Shown here piece by piece: positions 46,459 to 64,000 of a stretch of 64,000 bases of DNA. The position numbers and the translations under genes were made by a program. The notes under the pieces were generated by a model that worked only from the letters and a program-made list of their open reading frames with translations, made no database searches and was not told the DNA's origin. Origin of the DNA: an uncultured Nitrososphaerota archaeon (GTDB lineage: Archaea > Thermoproteota > Nitrososphaeria > Conexivisphaerales > DTJL01); contig CAWJIE010000003.1 of the NCBI GenBank assembly GCA_963842885.1, positions 128,001 through 192,000 of the forward strand, given 5' to 3'. Numbering within the stretch: position 1 is the first letter of the stretch; every line of letters begins with the position of its first letter.

Positions 46459-46480
46459 ACGTGGGCTTGGACCTGCGAAG
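46459..46480 (+). repeat. Dispersed repeat, half B copy
   Basis: ACGTGGGCTTGGACCTGCGAAG. Confidence 0.75.
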
Positions 46481-47574: not shown

Positions 47575-47610
47575 TGAACGGTTCAAGGATGCTACATGAT
47601 CATGCGGTCG

Positions 47611-47648
47611 TTGCTGGAAAGGGTCACATGTCCTCAAACCGTTCTGGA
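47611..47648 (+). repeat. Dispersed repeat, half A copy
   Basis: TTGCTGGAAAGGGTCACATGTCCTCAAACCGTTCTGGA versus the reverse complement of 61191-61230. Confidence 0.7.
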
Positions 47649-51770: not shown

Positions 51771-52664
51771 TCCAGCAACGAAGCTCTGGAAGCAAAGGAC
51801 AGCCAGATAAAAGAGCAGTCGAAAAGATACGAGGGGCGCCTTTCCGCCAAGGATATCGCGCTTGCGGACACAACGAGGGGCTACATCGAAGGACTAATCG
51901 AGAGGGACACGAGAATCAAGGCCCTTCAGGGTGAAAAGGAACAACTCATCGGGCATCTCAAGGATCTGACGAAAGTCAAGGACGATCTCAAAGCCAAGCT
52001 GAAGATGAAGCGCGACCAGCTCATGAAGGAGCCTGAGACTAAGAAGGAGATCGACGACGAAGTCGCCAGGCTAAAGAAGGAATGGGAAGAAAAGGAGAAG
52101 CCCAAGGAGGTCGACCAGGCGGCACTTGATAAGCTGACGGGTGTTCTCGTGGAGCTCAGAGGCCCATCCGAGACGGCACCTACGGTCCCTGCCGGCGACC
52201 TGAAACAGATGGTCAAGCAGATGATAGAAGGAGAGGTGAACCGTCGGATGGACGAGAAGTTCGAAGCCAGAGTGGAGACTGAGAAGAACAAGAGAGTGAA
52301 CGAAATCATCGAGGAGGTAAAGCAGAAGGAATGGGAGAAGTGGTACAATGAGAAGGTGGTACCCCTGGCGAACCAGCTTGACCAGGAGTTCAGGACGAAC
52401 GTGCTCTCCCGTCTGATGGTGCCCTGGCCTCTTACCTGTCTGGCTGGTCATCAAAACACCCACACGTTTTCGGCTGATGAATGGGATGAGCTCGTCAGGA
52501 CCGGGCGCACCAAATTCGCATGCGGTCAATCTGGATGCCTGCAAAGTTTCGTTGGCCCTTTGACCGGAATAGAGGTCAGGTCATCGCGGCTGATACAAAT
52601 CTTGTTTAGTTCGGCAGAATCTCATCCTCCTCAGAGGGACCAAAACTCGGTGGCAATCTTCTAG
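51771..52664 (+). pseudogene. Coiled-coil protein with C-terminal Cys/His cluster, 5'-truncated
   Basis: Coiled-coil frame is open upstream of 52005 (EALEAKDSQIKEQ...) without a start codon; TCLAGH...ACGQSGC. Confidence 0.55.
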
Positions 52665-52835
52665 ATCATCAGGATTCTTCATCCATCAGTCCTTCGATTC
52701 CCTACCCTCAGGGCGGCAATACCGATAGTCCTCCTCATGGTTTGCACTCGGAGGAATCCTAGGGCAGGGCCAGACACCGGTCGCGTTCTTGATTACTCGT
52801 GCTGGCGGGCGAAGGCGACGTCGACTGGACTTGGG

Positions 52836-53816
52836 TCACAAGTGGTCTTCCACGACCCGCGGCCTGTACGGCTCCTCGAGGCGCTTCATCTCGTCCTGGC
52901 TGACGCTGATCTCGGTCGCCTCGGCGAGCTCGCGAATCTGCGAGGCCTTCGTCGCACCGACGATGGGCGACGTGACGCCAGGCTTCTGCAGGAGCCACGC
53001 CAGGGCCAGCTGGGCCGGCTTAACATCCTTCTCCTTCGCGACCTCAATGAGGGCGTCGAGCACTTCGAAGTCCTGGGGCTTGAAGAACCGCTGCTTCAGG
53101 TAGCGGTCGTTCTTGTATCGATTGCCGCGAGGCTTCGCGCCCCTCCTATACTTCCCCGACAGGAACCCTCTGGCCAGCGGGCTCCATGGGATGACGCCCA
53201 CCCCCCTCGAAATGCAGAGCGGGATCATCTCCCTCTCCTCCTCCCTGTAGACCAGGCTGTACTGGGCCTGCATGCTGACGAACTTCTCCAGCCCAAGCCT
53301 TTCGCTAGTGTCCAGCGCCGTGGCGAACTGCCAGGCCCACATGCTCGAGGCACCAATGTAGTGCACGACGTTCTGAGAGTGGACGAGGTCGTCCAACGTC
53401 GACAGGGTCTCCTCGATGGGTGTTTCGTAGTCCCACCGGTGTATCTGGTAGAGGTCTATGTACCTGGTACGAAGGCGCTCGAGCGAACGCTGCACTTGAC
53501 GCCTGATGTGCTTGCGTGAGAGACCGCGGTCGTTGGGGCCGGTGCCCGTGGGGTGGTAGACCTTGGTGGCGATGACAAGGTCGTCTCGCCTCCCCTCCAC
53601 AGCCTTCCCCACGACCTCCTCCGACTTGCCGCTTGAATACATGTTGGCCGTGTCCAGGAAGTTGATCCCCAGGTCTATCGCCGCTTTGATGATCGGCAGG
53701 GACTCCTCGTAGCCGAGGGTCCAAGAGAAGCCCTCCTTCCCTCCCCCGAAGCCCATGCAGCCCAGGCAGATGCGGGACACCTTCAGACCGCTGTTCCCCA
53801 GACGGATGTATTTCAT
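52836..53816 (-). CDS. Aldo/keto reductase
   Basis: LGNSGLKVSRICLGCM, DTANMYS, IDLYQIHRWD and PWSPLARG. Confidence 0.92.
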   Translation of the reverse strand: MKYIRLGNSGLKVSRICLGCMGFGGGKEGFSWTLGYEESLPIIKAAIDLGINFLDTANMYSSGKSEEVVGKAVEGRRDDLVIATKVYHPTGTGPNDRGLSRKHIRRQVQRSLERLRTRYIDLYQIHRWDYETPIEETLSTLDDLVHSQNVVHYIGASSMWAWQFATALDTSERLGLEKFVSMQAQYSLVYREEEREMIPLCISRGVGVIPWSPLARGFLSGKYRRGAKPRGNRYKNDRYLKQRFFKPQDFEVLDALIEVAKEKDVKPAQLALAWLLQKPGVTSPIVGATKASQIRELAEATEISVSQDEMKRLEEPYRPRVVEDHL

Positions 53817-53872
53817 GGATTCGTTCTCGGCGCGGACTGCTAATTAGCTTTGCCCCAGGTGGCTGGAGACGG

Positions 53873-54247
53873 CTAGTCGGCAGGCCCTCGCTTCAGGATA
53901 AGCCACTGGCCCTTTCCTCCGGCCATTAGGACCAGCGCGTACTCCCCCTCAAGTTTCGCGCCATGAAGGGTGAAGCGGATCAGCGTAGGGGTCCTTTCGT
54001 TAAGGGTGTACTCGCCTTTGTCCCAGATCTCGACCTTTCCGGCGCCATAGTGCCCCTCGGGGATGGTGCCTTCGAAGGACCCATAGTCCAGGCTGTGGTC
54101 GTCGACCTGCATGGCGAGGTGCTTGATCCCGGGGGCGTCCGGGACCCCCTTTGGGACGGCCCACGACTTGAGCACGCCGTCCATTTCGAGCCTGAAGTCG
54201 AAGTGATGGTGCGAAGCCCAATGTTCGTGCACGACGAATCCAGGCAT
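53873..54247 (-). CDS. Stand-alone LigD 3'-phosphoesterase domain
   Basis: FVVHEHWASHHHFDFRLE, KSWAVPKG, DHSLDY and YGAG.V.IWD.G.Y. Confidence 0.92.
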   Translation of the reverse strand: MPGFVVHEHWASHHHFDFRLEMDGVLKSWAVPKGVPDAPGIKHLAMQVDDHSLDYGSFEGTIPEGHYGAGKVEIWDKGEYTLNERTPTLIRFTLHGAKLEGEYALVLMAGGKGQWLILKRGPAD

Positions 54248-54412
54248 CTCATGACGCGGCGGAGCCCTTGGTTATATCAATCTGTGCCTTGGAGGCCTTG
54301 ACATGGGAGCCGACCCCATCCCAGTGATAATCCCTTGGAGGGAGAGCTCAGAATCTGGGCCCACGCACGGCTATGCCATGACATCAGCTTGTGAGCAGGA
54401 ATCCTGGCGAAC

Positions 54413-54586
54413 CTAGAGGCCCTTGAACCCGTCCACGGCGCGCTTCTTCAAGTCGGCGAGCTGGCCCTCGGCATCCGCGCTGAACTCCTTCGCCTTGGAT
54501 TCTATCTTCTCGCGGGCCTCGGCGAAGGCCTTCATCTCCTTCGCCTTCCTGCGCTCCTCTGCCATCGCCCTTGCTTCCGAGCTCAA
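54413..54586 (-). CDS. Short charged helical protein, possibly A-ATPase subunit H/G-like (not in ORF track)
   Basis: TTG overlaps the atpD stop; MAEERRKAKEMKAFAEAREKIESKAKEFSADAEGQLADLKKRA. Confidence 0.5.
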   Translation of the reverse strand: MSSEARAMAEERRKAKEMKAFAEAREKIESKAKEFSADAEGQLADLKKRAVDGFKGL

Positions 54587-55219
54587 GCCGCCTGCCTCCG
54601 CCTCTCCAGCACCCGCTTGACGCTCTTAAGCCTTACAAACTCCTCCCTGTCGCGCTCCTCGAGGGTCGACGCGATGAACCTGATCTGGGCCTCGTACTGC
54701 GGGATTATGATGAATTCGAGAGCGTTGATGGTGCGCTGGGTCTTCTCGATTTCGCTGACCAGCCTGAAGATCACGTTCTCGATCTCGGCCGCCTTCAGTA
54801 TGCTGGGGAGAAGCGAAGTCAGGTAGGAGTAGGCCTCGTCCAGCGAATATGAGGTATCGCCGAAGCCATAGGGGCGGAGGACCTCCTTGAAGTTCAGCGT
54901 CAGTGACGGGACGTCGACGTCGACTATCCTCTTGACGTTGACCAATGACGTTCGCGGCGGGGGGCGCCGACTTCGCGGTGGCCTCCAGGCGCATGGCGCC
55001 CATTTCAACGTAGGCCTCGTAGAGGAAGTCGTATCCCTTGAGTATGGAGGCGTTGAGGCTCCTGTTGGCCTTGGACGCCTCCTCCACGTACTCGTTGAGC
55101 TTCTTGAGAAGCACCTCCCGCTTGTCGTCCAAGATGTCGTGAATCTTCTTGGTCATGACCAGCGAGCGCCGGAGCCTGATGAGCTCCAGTTTCGTGGGCT
55201 GGATCTTCTGGCTGGACAT
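54583..55219 (-). CDS. atpD: A/V-type ATP synthase subunit D (indels)
   Basis: PTKLELIRL...LDDKREVL and EIEKTQRTINALE...LEERDRE. Confidence 0.92.
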
Positions 55220-60371: not shown

Positions 60372-60603
60372 GGAGTTCTCGGCTAGGGGGAAGCTCGGCA
60401 GCAGATAAGAATTGGCTGCGTTCCAGCGGTTGGAGGGATCACTAGGCATCCGTTTGGGTCCTGTTCGCCATGGACCTGCCCTGGAGTCGACCCAACGAAG
60501 CCCGAAGGAGTCCCCACCCATCGAGATAGGAGACTCCCTCGGTCTTGCCGCTCCTGGAGGGTCAGGGCCGTCCCGAGCCGGCTATTGGACAAGGCTCTAA
60601 TAT

Positions 60604-60982
60604 GTGAAGCCCGTAGCTCGCTTTGTGGTAGTCAACCTATTCACGTCGAACTACGTCCCGGGATGCAAGGTGGACAAGGTCGTTGGGCTCGTCTACGGGA
60701 TAACGGTGAGGTCGAGAGGCATCGGCGGGAACATCATGGCCGGCCTCAGGACGCTTGGCGGAGGAGAGATACACGAGTACACCGAGCTGGCGCACCAGGC
60801 AAGGCAGCAGGCACTGGACAGGCTGTCCCAGCAGGCTGAGACCCTCGGCGCCAACGCCGTGATCAGCGTGATGTTCGACTCTACCGAGATCGGTCACGAC
60901 CATGGACGAGATAATCGCCTTCGGTACAGCTGTCGTCGTTTCGCCCGTGGCAGACGGCCAGCAGTTCGTCAGGCTGAGCTAG
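60604..60982 (+). CDS. YbjQ/UPF0145 family protein (indel at about 60897)
   Basis: GLVYGITVRSR, GGEIHEYT, LGANAVI and FGTAV. Confidence 0.88.
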
Positions 60983-61143
60983 GCCCGAAGGCTTCGACGA
61001 CCGGCACCACTCTCGTAGGCAGGCCTATCCGTGATGCTTCGCGAAGGAGCTCCTGGGTTGGAAGATAGGGCTGCAGTGGTGTCACTTCAGGGATCCACAA
61101 TGCAGCCTGTGTGTGCAGGCTGACGTCTGGGAAAAGCTGCAAG

Positions 61144-61230
61144 TGAACGTACCTGTGAAATAAGGCCCTTTCGCAGGTCCAAGCCCACGTCCAAGAACGG
61201 CGGTTGAAGACATCGTTATTCTCTTCCAGC
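61144..61230 (-). repeat. Dispersed repeat, complete A+B copy, interrupted at the A core by the IS
   Basis: Reverse complement: GCTGGAAGAGAATAACGATGTCTTCAACCGCCGTTCTTGGACGTGGGCTTGGACCTGCGAAAGGGCCTTATTTCACAGGTACGTTCA. Confidence 0.85.
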
Positions 61231-61292
61231 ACTCATGAAAGACGCCCTATGGGCGGGCTTCCTAAAGCCTGCCTTCCGCCAGCGACGCTGTG

Positions 61293-62336
61293 TCAGGCGT
61301 CCATGGATTTGAGCTTTGTCTTGTACCTCTCCCTGTTCGTGGACTCGTACTCCTCCCTTCTCGTGAGCATGAACCAGACGATCTTCAGCATCTTGTTGGC
61401 CACGGCTACTACGGCCTTCTGGTCGCCTCTCCTCTCCTTCACCCGCTCGTAGAAGGACCTCAGCCTCGGGTCGTGCATCGATGCAGACCTCGCCGCCTCC
61501 ACCATGATCCATCGGAGCATCTTGGAGCCCTGCTTCGTTATGGCTCCGTGATACTCCACGGAGCCCGATTGGTGGAGAGAGGGCGCCAGCCCCGCCCAGG
61601 AAACGAGCTTCTTGTAGTTGGGGAACCTCTTGATGTCCCCTATCTCGGACCTTATGAGGAGGGCCGAGAAGACGTCCACCCCCGTCAGGCTCAGGAGCAG
61701 CCTCACGTCCTCGTCCTGTGACGCCCTCTCCGTGATCCTGTCGTCCACCCTGGAGATCTGCCCGTCCAGGCTCTCCAGGTGGGCCAGGTGGTTGTCCAGC
61801 ATGAGCCTGTCCATGGGAGGGAGCTCCAGCGACCTCAGCCACCCCACTCCTCCCTTCCCGAACAGGTCGGAGAAGTCATGCTTCAGGCCGTTCCTGTCGA
61901 CCATCGCGTGAACCCTGTTCTTCACCATGGTGCGCACCCTCACTATGGAGGCCCTGTGCCTGATGAGCTCCCTCATCTCCCTGACATCCTTGGGAGGGAC
62001 GTAGCTCTCGGGTATGAGATCGGCCCTCAGCAGATGCGCCAGTATCCTTGCGTCCACTTTGTCGCTCTTTATCCTCGCCCACGCTATGGCCTTGGTCTTC
62101 GAAGGGGAGGCCAACACGGTCGCGACGTGCATGGAATCGAGCCTCTCGTATATGCTTAGCCAGTAAGCCCCCGTCGACTCCATGACCACCCTGTCGTCCA
62201 TGGTGAGCGTCGCCGCTAGGGAGGATATCCCCTCATGGTCGTTGTCGAAGCCGAACTCGTCCACTACGGCCCCGTGCTCGTCCATCATGGAGACCCTGCA
62301 TCTCGTCTTGCCCACGTCTATTCCCACGTACTTCAT
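61293..62336 (-). CDS. IS110-family recombinase/transposase
   Basis: YVGIDVGK, VVMESTG and KSDKVDA (DEDD RuvC-like); GLAPSLHQSG catalytic Ser region. Confidence 0.96.
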   Translation of the reverse strand: MKYVGIDVGKTRCRVSMMDEHGAVVDEFGFDNDHEGISSLAATLTMDDRVVMESTGAYWLSIYERLDSMHVATVLASPSKTKAIAWARIKSDKVDARILAHLLRADLIPESYVPPKDVREMRELIRHRASIVRVRTMVKNRVHAMVDRNGLKHDFSDLFGKGGVGWLRSLELPPMDRLMLDNHLAHLESLDGQISRVDDRITERASQDEDVRLLLSLTGVDVFSALLIRSEIGDIKRFPNYKKLVSWAGLAPSLHQSGSVEYHGAITKQGSKMLRWIMVEAARSASMHDPRLRSFYERVKERRGDQKAVVAVANKMLKIVWFMLTRREEYESTNRERYKTKLKSMDA

Positions 62337-62349
62337 CTTTTCACCTCCT

Positions 62350-62490
62350 TCGTACGCAGCTGGCATCGGGCTGCATTCACTCATGCGGGCGCGAAGCCCA
62401 CTTCCTTAGCAGCTCAGGATTCGCCCAGTCAGCAACACGGTCGCCAGGACCATGCTGGAAATAGGGCTTGCCAGCCCATACGGTATCAGG
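62350..62490 (-). ncRNA. Putative bridge/seek RNA of the IS110 element (limits approximate)
   Basis: Two stem-loops whose internal loops match the target (TTTCCAGCA, TTGCTG) and the donor junction (TAAGG, CATGAGTG). Confidence 0.7.
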
Positions 62491-62586
62491 GGGCGTCTTT
62501 CATAAGGTCAGCAATAGATGCCCGGATGCCTGTTCGGGATGGTAGAAATAAGAGGAGGTCTACAGGTTCTACAGACTGGGTTCAGG

Positions 62587-63213
62587 ATGGTGAAGAACAG
62601 GACGCTCGTTATTGGCTTATGTGTGCTCGTAGCGGCGTCTGCCTTGGCTTTTGGACTGCTAAGTCAGGAGTATCATCTAGTTGAGAATGCCTCGACACCG
62701 ATGGTCGTTCATTCTCCCGTACACGACGGTCTTGAGCTCACGGCTACGATTGAGCGAGAGGGACAGAACGTCAGCGTCATCGCCGAGGTTAACAATACGC
62801 TATCAACATACCTGCAAGTGAATTCAACTTCCATCGATAATCCTGCCTACGGACCCTGCCAGCAGGGTTTTGCCACGGGGGTAAGAGTCTACATGGGACA
62901 TTATTCGCTCAGCAATCTATCACAAGCTAAGGAACTCTTGCTCTATGACCCATCGTCGCAATACCGCTGCCCGGCATTCTTCACATTTCAGTATACCTTT
63001 TCACCAAATAGCGCAATGGCAACGGTACAAGCAACTCTAGGTGGCTATCAACAGAATGGATCTCGGCTTGTCAGTGAAACGTCGGTTGTCTCGGGTTATT
63101 GGGTCGGCTCTGGGCAGAGTTACATATTCCAGAGATTCCCAGCTGGAGAATATTCGGTTCTCGTCTTCGACGCGTGGGGAGACGAAGCAGTCGGATACTT
63201 CCAAGTCGCCTAG
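62587..63213 (+). CDS. Membrane-anchored secreted hypothetical protein
   Basis: N-terminal TM; beta-rich; FPAGEYSVLVFDAWGD C-terminus. Confidence 0.7.
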   Translation: MVKNRTLVIGLCVLVAASALAFGLLSQEYHLVENASTPMVVHSPVHDGLELTATIEREGQNVSVIAEVNNTLSTYLQVNSTSIDNPAYGPCQQGFATGVRVYMGHYSLSNLSQAKELLLYDPSSQYRCPAFFTFQYTFSPNSAMATVQATLGGYQQNGSRLVSETSVVSGYWVGSGQSYIFQRFPAGEYSVLVFDAWGDEAVGYFQVA

Positions 63214-63323
63214 TCTTTGCACCGCGAACTTGACCAAGCGCACCTACGCAACGGACTGAATTGAGGACATCGTAATTCCTTCCGGCATCAACAGATATCC
63301 AAATGCATCTTCCAGTGGCTCTC

Positions 63324-63345
63324 ATTCACAGGTCCGAGCCCATGT
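63324..63345 (-). repeat. Dispersed repeat, half B copy
   Basis: Reverse complement: ACATGGGCTCGGACCTGTGAAT. Confidence 0.6.
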
Positions 63346-63526
63346 AATAGGGCCACTGCCTGAAACCGACTCCAGCCGAACCATAACAAGACTGGGTTTG
63401 TCTAAGGAGCCACTCCAATGCCTCCCCAAAAGCGACTAGTACTGTTTGCCTAAGCTACAGGTTGGGCAAACTTAAAAACCACCCACCTGAATGGCTAGGT
63501 GCATCAAGGATTTCGGTGAAACTCGT

Positions 63527-64000
63527 TTGTCTAAGCCAGATATCAACGTGGCGGACGAAGAGGGTAGCAGCGACAAGCTCATCACTACACAGCTGTCCGA
63601 GAAGACCCTGATATCCACTGGAATCAGGATCGGGACGACCGTGAAGACCAAGTACATGGAGGGCTACATCGCCCGCAGCAGGCCAGATGGCCTCCATCTC
63701 ATAGACATGAACAAGACACTCAACAGGATCGAGGTGGCGGGCAAGTTCATCGCTCGCTTTCCGGCCAACAGGGTCGTCATCTATACGTCCCGGGACTTCG
63801 GGAGGACACCCATTCAGAAGTTCTGCGAGGTCACAGGCTGCGTGGCGGTCACCGGCCGTTTCATGCCCGGCACCTTTACGAACCCCCAGCTCCCGGTCTA
63901 CAGGGACGCCGACCTCCTTCTGGTCGTCGACCCCGCCTTGGACCACCAGGCCATTATTGAAGCTTCAGCGACAGGCTTCCCCGTGATCTCCGTCGCCGAC
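63527..64000 (+). CDS. rps2: 30S ribosomal protein uS2 (runs off the window)
   Basis: TGIRIGTTVKTKYM, GRFMPGTFTNP and DPALDHQAI; GGTGA before TTG. Confidence 0.95.
   Translation, partial: MSKPDINVADEEGSSDKLITTQLSEKTLISTGIRIGTTVKTKYMEGYIARSRPDGLHLIDMNKTLNRIEVAGKFIARFPANRVVIYTSRDFGRTPIQKFCEVTGCVAVTGRFMPGTFTNPQLPVYRDADLLLVVDPALDHQAIIEASATGFPVISVAD

Follow-up and report, generated by a model that had tools for sequence, protein, structure and literature searches.

How does an insertion sequence find its landing sites, and can its choice be read from its own non-coding end? This question is raised by a locus in a 64,000-nt stretch of DNA from an uncultured Nitrososphaerota archaeon (contig CAWJIE010000003.1, positions 128,001 to 192,000); the whole stretch is called the window hereafter, and all coordinates follow its numbering. 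The locus is occupied by an IS110-family insertion sequence (IS) lying on the minus strand. A preliminary description, made from the letters of the window, had proposed an archaeal IS110 element whose bridge RNA carries target and donor loops programmed against a dispersed repeat. This proposal is borne out by the genomic copies, by the covariation of the guides, by the position of the near-perfect target sites (22 of 22 in the repeat) and by the ribosomal RNA (rRNA) of the genome, whose small- and large-subunit genes score highest on archaeal Rfam models. We consider it very probable that the locus holds a mobile IS110-family element with an intact recombinase gene and a bridge RNA programmed against a dispersed repeat of its host. 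The element and the sites that frame it are the following.

62511 to 62520, minus strand: left half of the target (CATCTATTGC), belonging to the dispersed repeat (module A), from the flank alignment of the three copies, the repeat consensus and the empty-site contig.
62509 to 62510, minus strand: core dinucleotide TG, left copy, from the two ambiguous bases at the empty-site joint and the TG/AG covariation in homologues.
61232 to 62508, minus strand: IS110-family insertion sequence, from three copies at 100, 96 and 93% identity and an empty allele that skips 1279 (1277 + 2) bases.
62491 to 62503, minus strand: left subterminal inverted repeat ATGAAAGACGCCC, element nt 6-18, whose TATGAAAG block is kept in 75 homologues.
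61235 to 61247, plus strand: right subterminal inverted repeat (ATGAAAGACGCCC read on the plus strand), from the sequence.
61230 to 61231, minus strand: core dinucleotide TG, right copy, from the flanks of the copies and the empty-site contig.
61220 to 61229, minus strand: right target half (CTGGAAGAGA), in which the repeat continues, from the flanks of the copies, the repeat search and the empty-site contig.

The element measures 1277 bp without its core copies, and a TG dinucleotide flanks it on either side. Its subterminal inverted repeats are perfect over 13 bp and occupy nt 6-18 from the left end and nt 4-16 from the right end. The left non-coding end, from the element start to the start codon, spans about 172-177 nt and the right one about 62 nt. 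The 2.03-Mb assembly contains the three copies listed above and zero other IS110-family genes. All three copies read TCTATTGCTG followed by ACCTTATGAAAG at the left junction and TTTCATGAGTG followed by CTGGA at the right junction, with the same layout, TCTATTGC-TG-IS-TG-CTGGA, in 3 of 3. Relatives were collected from two sources. Species-representative genomes gave 13 loci with a related protein, 11 of them labelled Bathyarchaeia, Bathyarchaeota or 'archaeon', one Nitrososphaerales and one a distant Poribacteria (34%). A metagenome scan gave 241 stretches with relatives, of which the best 80 were used. The left end and loop motifs were recognisable in 84 loci, 78 of which also had a right end, and 75 distinct non-coding sequences were aligned.

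The boundaries of the element are fixed by a natural empty allele. In a 2319-nt contig from a peat metagenome, both flanks match with 0 mismatches and position 61229 is joined straight to 62509. This contig leaves out 1279 bases, corresponding to the 1277-bp element and one TG, with two bases ambiguous at the joint. The restored empty site is CATCTATTGC-TG-CTGGAAGAG (more precisely ...ATCTATTGC-TG-CTGGAAGAG), equal to the repeat consensus. Among the homologues, only the last two bases are common to both junctions, and these are TG or AG. On the repeat consensus, the empty-site contig and the homologue junctions, the core is TG. The preliminary description had read a 4-bp core, GCTG, at both ends, with CATCTATT-GCTG-GAAGAG as the empty site and CATGAGT-GCTG-ACCTTA as the circle junction. 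GCTG is indeed present at both boundaries in all three copies, as GC closes the left half and CTG opens the right one. However, the empty allele skips 1279 and not 1282 bases, with two ambiguous only, which refutes the longer core; the empty site deduced from that core is 3 nt too short. In addition, TATTGCTGGA occurs once in the genome, at a site outside those listed by the repeat search, whereas the repeat consensus has GCTGCTGG, and the homologue ends share only their last 2 nt. A GCTG core therefore deserves virtually no credence. With TG as the core, the circle junction is predicted to be CATGAG-TG-ACCTTA, in the context ...TTTCATGAG-TG-ACCTTATGAAAG..., and the junction string that would decide between the two cores is CATGAGTGACCTTA. 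This joint was not listed among the metagenome contigs matched to the element, which by their nature cannot show its absence.

We then turn to the repeat into which the element is inserted. Its consensus of about 40 nt, TTGGATATCT(A/G)TTGCTGCTGGAAAAGAAATCAATATCATC, contains GCTGCTG (...TTGCTGCTGGAAA...) and yielded 48 nhmmer hits in the genome. Forty of these copies lie wholly outside crude open reading frames (ORFs), though such ORFs cover 85% of the genome, and the copies show no preferred orientation relative to the neighbouring genes. The target motif is enriched in the window, with TGCTGGAAR found 7 times for 1.07 expected and none of 100 shuffles reaching 7. The three genomic copies of the element all occupy one identical position of the repeat, and none lies in unrelated sequence. 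Overlapping the two guides at the core defines a 15-nt site, TGTTGCTGCTGGAAA, which has three exact copies in the genome when 0.0026 would be expected from composition. At most one mismatch is found in 22 sites, every one of them in the repeat, and at most two mismatches in 42 sites, 35 of them in the repeat. The preliminary description had pointed to three unoccupied copies that would fit the guide. Two of them, at 241 and 48003, are members of the repeat with 2 and 1 mismatches to the 15-nt site; the third, at 47612 (GTCGTTGCTGGAAAGG), falls outside the repeat family and matches the left half-site only.

The repeat itself is not restricted to this genome. A 123-nt query, made of the repeat and a neighbouring module, has matches in three of the four other genomes of the genus and none in 26 more distant ones, of which four belong to the family and 22 to the rest of the order. 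The element was not found in the four congeners nor in one other genome of the family, except for fragments of 41 and 51 nt in one congener. The presence of the repeat in three congeners where the IS was not found indicates that it is an independent host element exploited by the IS. Its targeting by the IS shows independently, as initially claimed, that the repeat is a real element. Its presence in congeners also bears on the converse view, in which the repeat would be a by-product of the IS, left as footprints or solo ends. The IS and the repeat do share genome regions, as this view would have it. Nevertheless, by inspection the repeat consensus and the element ends have no sequence in common, the repeat exists in congeners where the IS was not found, and removal of the element restores the repeat exactly. 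An origin of the repeat from the IS is thus practically untenable.

Several observations were made around the repeat. A coding role in this genome was considered and rejected, as six frames of all 48 copies showed no consistent start, stop or conservative substitutions. At 47598-47627 of the window (GTCGTTGCTGGAAAGG), the left half-site and core of the guide are matched and the right half is not. Half-match recombination has been reported (10.64898/2026.08.31.748434), and by analogy this half-site is a possible off-target. Another motif, GGCTTGGACCTGCGAA, recurs through the genome, in 41 exact copies and in 66 when up to 2 mismatches are allowed; in the window it is found for example at 46464, 48048 and 51476 on the plus strand and at 61185 and 63340 on the minus strand. 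GACGTG usually comes before it and (A)ATGGGCTGAC after it. It forms same-strand arrays with a spacing of 0.4-5 kb in a few regions (for example 15-48 kb and 94-110 kb of contig C2) and often stands on both sides of the IS target module. After it come further recurring modules, of which one contains a TATTG-AAAA-CAATA hairpin and another GTTTGCCC...GGCAAAC. Together, GGCTTGGACCTGCGAA and its linked modules look like a modular intergenic repeat system or the boundary of a cassette array.

The bridge RNA region and its guides lie in the left end of the element, upstream of the gene.

62354 to 62480, minus strand: structured bridge-RNA region (127 nt) with outer stem, target-binding loop and donor-binding loop, from the RNAalifold consensus of 75 sequences.
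62453 to 62462, minus strand: 5' strand of loop 1 (ATTTCCAGCA), the complement of TG-CTGGAAA, the top strand of core and right target, from covariation with the right flanks.
62428 to 62437, minus strand: 3' strand of loop 1 (TGTTGCTG plus AC), in the sense of left target and core, its last 2 nt being the first 2 nt of the element, from covariation with the left flanks.
62401 to 62408, minus strand: 5' strand of loop 2 (TAAGGAAG), in which TAAGG is complementary to element nt 2-6 (CCTTA), from variants that follow the left end in homologues.
62375 to 62385, minus strand: 3' strand of loop 2 (CATGAGTGAAT), in which CATGAGTG equals the right element end and core, from GAGAG in all 10 AG-core lineages.
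62341 to 62348, minus strand: Shine-Dalgarno-like GGAGGTGA 5' of the transposase start, GGAGGTGA being also in the consensus of the 75-sequence alignment.
61293 to 62336, minus strand: transposase/recombinase gene, 347 aa (MKYVGIDVGK...), stop codon included, from Pfam, NCBIfam and the IS621 alignment.

The strings quoted in the preliminary description, namely TTTCCAGCA at 62453-62461, TTGCTG at 62430-62435 and a loop 2 reading GCTGC-TAAGGAA-hairpin-ATGAGTG-AATGCAGC, are all present in this region. Folding of the 75 sequences by RNAalifold gave an outer stem followed by a first and a second stem, each enclosing an internal loop closed by a hairpin. This consensus comprises 5 helices and 31 pairs. 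Standard pairs fill 96.8% of the cells, compared with 24-45% when the 3' partners are slid by 1-3 columns, and double changes are seen in 91 cells versus 23 +/- 7 in shuffles, the observed value being reached in 0 of 500. Compensatory pairs are exemplified by positions 53:102 (UA 51, CG 20) and 133:148 (GC 49, UA 17). Folded as a single sequence, the region from the left end to the start codon of this element reaches -68.1 kcal/mol (z = -2.71), and 1 of 200 shuffles is as stable. In the left subterminal repeat, TTATGAAAG might, at a guess, be a TATA box placed about 25 nt before the outer stem.

The guides were then compared with the flanks of the elements that carry them. In the window, the loop 1 guide proper, TGTTGCTG at 62430-62437, reads as the left flank and core. 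Across the relatives, the 3' guide agrees with the cognate left flank and core at 6.93 of 8 positions, compared with 3.75 for non-cognate ones (n = 74; 35 guide classes; 0 of 10,000 permutations). The reverse complement of the 5' guide agrees with the core and right flank at 6.85 of 8 positions versus 3.40 (n = 68; 43 classes; 0 of 10,000 permutations), registers 0 and 1 being allowed alike for cognate and control. The preliminary description had called for the fold and the guide/target covariation to be examined among homologues, and both support it. These permutations cover the two strands of loop 1, while the donor matches of loop 2 were compared by their variants. The latter track the left end: TATAG is found with CTATA, TTTAG with CTAAA, and TAAAG or TAGAG with CTTTA. 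The core covaries as well. Each of the 10 elements having an AG core shows this dinucleotide at its two junctions; loop 1 repeats it in its 3' strand, and the 3' strand of loop 2 has it within GAGAG. The 5' strand of loop 1 ends in CT, the full complement, in seven of them, in CC in two and in CA in one. The dinucleotide that follows the 3' guide, AC in this element, is the one with which the element begins in 70 of 75 sequences, AT (6) and TC (2) variants included. The guide therefore also matches the occupied left junction. By analogy, this match may correspond to the 'handshake' pairing reportedly described for IS621.

Could the protein alone pick the target, the 5' non-coding region serving only as a promoter or leader that resembles the target by chance or as a relic? 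In favour of this view, RNA of the element has not been observed, and the subterminal inverted repeats could be protein-binding sites. On the other hand, both strands of the loop vary with the flanks over 53 distinct natural guide pairs, while the recombinases of the relatives compared are 60-74% identical. The stem pairing is kept through compensatory changes. Furthermore, RNA guidance is recorded for the family in NCBIfam and in the experiments reported in PMC11208160 and PMC11187229. Choice of the target by the protein alone is thus highly improbable.

In the mechanism that we favour, the element encodes a 347-aa DEDD/serine recombinase, and its left end specifies a two-loop bridge RNA about 127 nt long. 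Loop 1 would select the target and loop 2 would recognise the element's own joined ends (CATGAG-TG-ACCTTA). Recombination at the common TG would insert the element, leaving TG on each side. The boundaries, the core, the targeting of the repeat and the covariation of RNA structure and of guides with target and donor are shown by the data above; production of the RNA, its binding by the recombinase and the strand-exchange chemistry would proceed by analogy with the rest of the family. The guides of loop 1 reproduce the consensus of a repeat that is specific to the lineage and for the most part avoids long ORFs, and the element would therefore be provided with many harmless landing sites.

The gene at 61293-62336, already recognised as an IS110 transposase in the preliminary description, matches PF01548 (E = 1.9e-27), PF02371 (E = 3.1e-24) and the NCBIfam model NF033542, 'IS110 family RNA-guided transposase', with 271.9 bits for a cut-off of 140. 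It aligns with the solved transposases of IS621 (8wt6; phmmer E = 5.8e-13, in two pieces) and ISCro4 (E = 7e-13). Pairwise identity is about 25% to ISEc11, IS5075 and IS4321, and at most 29% to all the named IS compared. The motifs GIDxxK, ExTGxY, DxxDAR and SGS are retained in the IS621 alignment and invariant in six members of the clade. We take GIDxxK, ExTG, DxxDA and SG to be the catalytic residues. The motif GL-P----SG was considered as a subfamily marker and dropped, as IS621 carries it too.

The three genomic copies differ in their integrity. Copies A (the copy of the window) and C have kept intact 347-aa reading frames, guides, ends and Shine-Dalgarno sequence, and from their sequence these two look functional. 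In copy B (contig C3:1411-2703, outside the window), a 4-nt insertion breaks the transposase frame and leaves a longest ORF of 227 aa. Its bridge-RNA region and ends are intact, and it could therefore be mobilised in trans by copies A or C. The empty allele with identical flanks in the peat metagenome indicates that the insertion is polymorphic in the population. The element has thus been mobile within its population.

A number of observations weigh against a working, RNA-guided element. The empty-site contig shows polymorphism and not present-day activity. There are only three copies despite 22 near-perfect free sites, one of them (copy B) frameshifted, and the element was not found in the four congeneric genomes apart from the two short fragments in one. 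A search for sequencing runs listed no RNA run holding the element sequence. As regards the RNA, the minimum free energy structure of the single sequence pairs the two guide strands together, and its z-score is only -2.71. A search of Rfam gave no match at E <= 1 for 60500-63500 and none at the gathering score for the window as a whole, and no curated bridge-RNA model was matched. As regards the guides, positions 1 and 2 of the 8 in the 3' guide match the flanks poorly (24% and 84%), and all three occupied sites carry an A in the place of a G of the guide. Finally, the match to the 5' guide falls below 6 of 8 positions in 8 of the 68 elements. Among these, L012 is devoid of any right-side match, L042 scores 5, L034, L040 and L063 are located in TG repeats, which make the register ambiguous, and L024, L049 and L051 carry four additional bases, AGTG, on the right side.

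In these last three elements, which are related, AGTG stands between the right end with its core and the guide-matched sequence (...CATGAG-TG-AGTG-target). From the sequence, either 4 nt of the right end seem to have been duplicated or resolution seems to have been offset.

Part of these data would fit an element that is a bridge-RNA IS by descent and now an inactive fossil in this genome, the match between guide and repeat recording past activity. The three copies have diverged by 4-7% and one is frameshifted, 22 near-perfect sites are unoccupied, and the element was not seen in the congeners. Against decay, copies A and C retain intact ORFs, guides, ends and Shine-Dalgarno sequences, and the identical-flank empty allele of the peat metagenome run marks the insertion as polymorphic in the population. 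We regard a fossil as unlikely, and a mobile element programmed against the repeat remains by far the better account.

Other loci were noted in the course of the analysis. Four copies of a relative in one Bathyarchaeota metagenome-assembled genome (MAG), L007-L010, have the target TTGCTTTTT-AG-AAGGCATCGAAAA, and the loop 1 guides of L007 are ATTTTTAG and CCTTCT. Translation of their left flanks gives hydrophobic helices with ...LLLFRR(H)RK at the end. Judging from these translations, this relative seems to target genes for membrane-anchored proteins, at the conserved 3' end of the coding sequence. In this MAG, the corresponding 13-nt site has 0 exact free copies, and 16 one-mismatch hits versus 9 in a reversed control, which indicates that the target is not an abundant repeat there. 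In the window, the neighbour on the far side of the IS is a gene at 62518-63213 (plus strand) for a 231-aa protein with an N-terminal hydrophobic segment (MVKNRTLVIGLCVLVAASALAFGLL...). The last gene, at 63491-64000 (plus strand), encodes ribosomal protein uS2, which is 41-51% identical to the uS2 of five named MAGs carrying relatives of the IS.

How does the element compare with known systems? Bridge RNAs with target and donor loops have been shown for IS621 (PMC11208160) and seekRNAs for elements of the IS1111 and IS110 types (PMC11187229). As in the IS110 family at large, we found the two domains, the motifs, a two-loop RNA, matches to target and donor, and precise insertion at the core. 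The likeness to IS621 of E. coli (Durrant et al. 2024, PMC11208160; 8wt6) extends to a DEDD plus Transposase_20 recombinase, an RNA with two internal loops (target and donor) in a long left end upstream of the gene, a dinucleotide core within each pairing and natural targets that are repeats. Yet the proteins are only distantly alike (the two-piece alignment at E = 5.8e-13 given above), the core is CT in IS621 and TG here, and the subterminal repeats measure 2-3 bp in IS621 versus 13 bp here. Moreover, the order of the guides is reversed, the top-strand match lying here 5' of the bottom-strand match, a feature that the preliminary description had missed. Thus, of the characters of the narrow, IS621-like IS110 group, the upstream RNA in a long left end is present, whereas the guide order and the size of the subterminal repeats differ.

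A top-strand match placed before the bottom-strand match is the order of IS1111 elements, which have subterminal inverted repeats and transposases of 330-350 aa (PMC11187229). The element shares with the IS1111-family ISEc11, ISKpn4 and ISPa11 (Siddiquee et al. 2024, PMC11187229) this guide order, subterminal repeats of similar length, within the 7-17 bp of the group, and a transposase in the 330-350 aa range. In contrast, their RNA lies downstream of the gene in the right end, while here it lies upstream and the right end is about 62 nt long. The RNA of IS1111 elements is said in PMC11187229 to be 'usually' downstream of the transposase, and in its passages on RNA placement an upstream RNA in IS1111-type elements is mentioned as a rare exception only. 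One of the few exceptions is ISMtsp17, an IS1111 relative with an upstream non-coding region, to which our element was compared by description only. On its sequence, the element mixes IS1111-like guide order and repeats with an IS110-like upstream RNA.

The choice of a repeat as target also has precedents. Targeting of repetitive extragenic palindromic (REP) repeats by IS110-family elements is in print (PMC12288879; 10.64898/2026.03.19.712850), and ISPpu9 and ISPpu10 of Pseudomonas putida described there are likewise RNA-guided IS that land in a multi-copy intergenic repeat. Here too, all copies occupy one position of a multi-copy host repeat. The differences are the host, bacterial for ISPpu9 and ISPpu10 and archaeal here, and the targets, palindromic REPs in the former and here a modular, non-REP repeat found in one genus among the genomes searched. 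In archaea, IS110 recombinases have been catalogued, with 662 in 2,835 archaeal genomes (10.1101/2024.06.21.599552). A detailed account of an archaeal bridge RNA was not found in the literature searches made, although supplementary tables of the 2024 papers may cover this clade. The closest match in a plasmid collection, at 45% identity, is an element of the Halanaeroarchaeum sulfurireducens plasmid pHSR2-01 (NZ_CP008875.1, 52987-53982), a single copy whose boundaries were placed by analogy. By eye, its layout is that of our element: the left flank, GGGCCTTG before AC..., recurs as AGGCCTTGAC in the 3' part of a loop upstream of the gene, and the 5' part of this loop has GTCTAAACA, which reverse-complements the right-junction sequence TG-TTTAGAC. 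In this cultured haloarchaeon, the element adjoins a HEPN-domain gene and an IS5 transposase (pHSR2-01, 52290-54664), and the locus could serve as a tractable relative for experiments.

It is possible, though we hold it as doubtful, that our element belongs with its relatives to an architectural class of its own among bridge-RNA transposons, mostly archaeal as far as the records are named, that combines IS1111-type order, long subterminal repeats and a left-end RNA. As framed here, this class would include the 241 metagenomic stretches, 12 archaeal MAG loci and the haloarchaeal plasmid copy (45%). If it holds, the RNA gene would have moved between the element ends with guide polarity unchanged, RNA location would be an unreliable marker of the IS110/IS1111 split, and at least 53 natural guide pairs would provide a ready-made reprogramming series. 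In any case, the mixed architecture bears on the relation between the IS110 and IS1111 subfamilies. The locus provides a natural case of bridge-RNA targeting, worked out in full, from an uncultured archaeon, with boundaries fixed by a real empty allele and 75 distinct homologous non-coding regions giving strong covariation for RNA structure, target and donor. Its 40-nt target, independently shown to be real, is a 'safe harbour', selected against nothing and known from one genus among the genomes searched. As the mechanism (described in 2024), repeat targeting and archaeal IS110 recombinases are already in print, these data add to the known biology without changing it: the element is clearly a natural example of a known mechanism and not a new kind of system.

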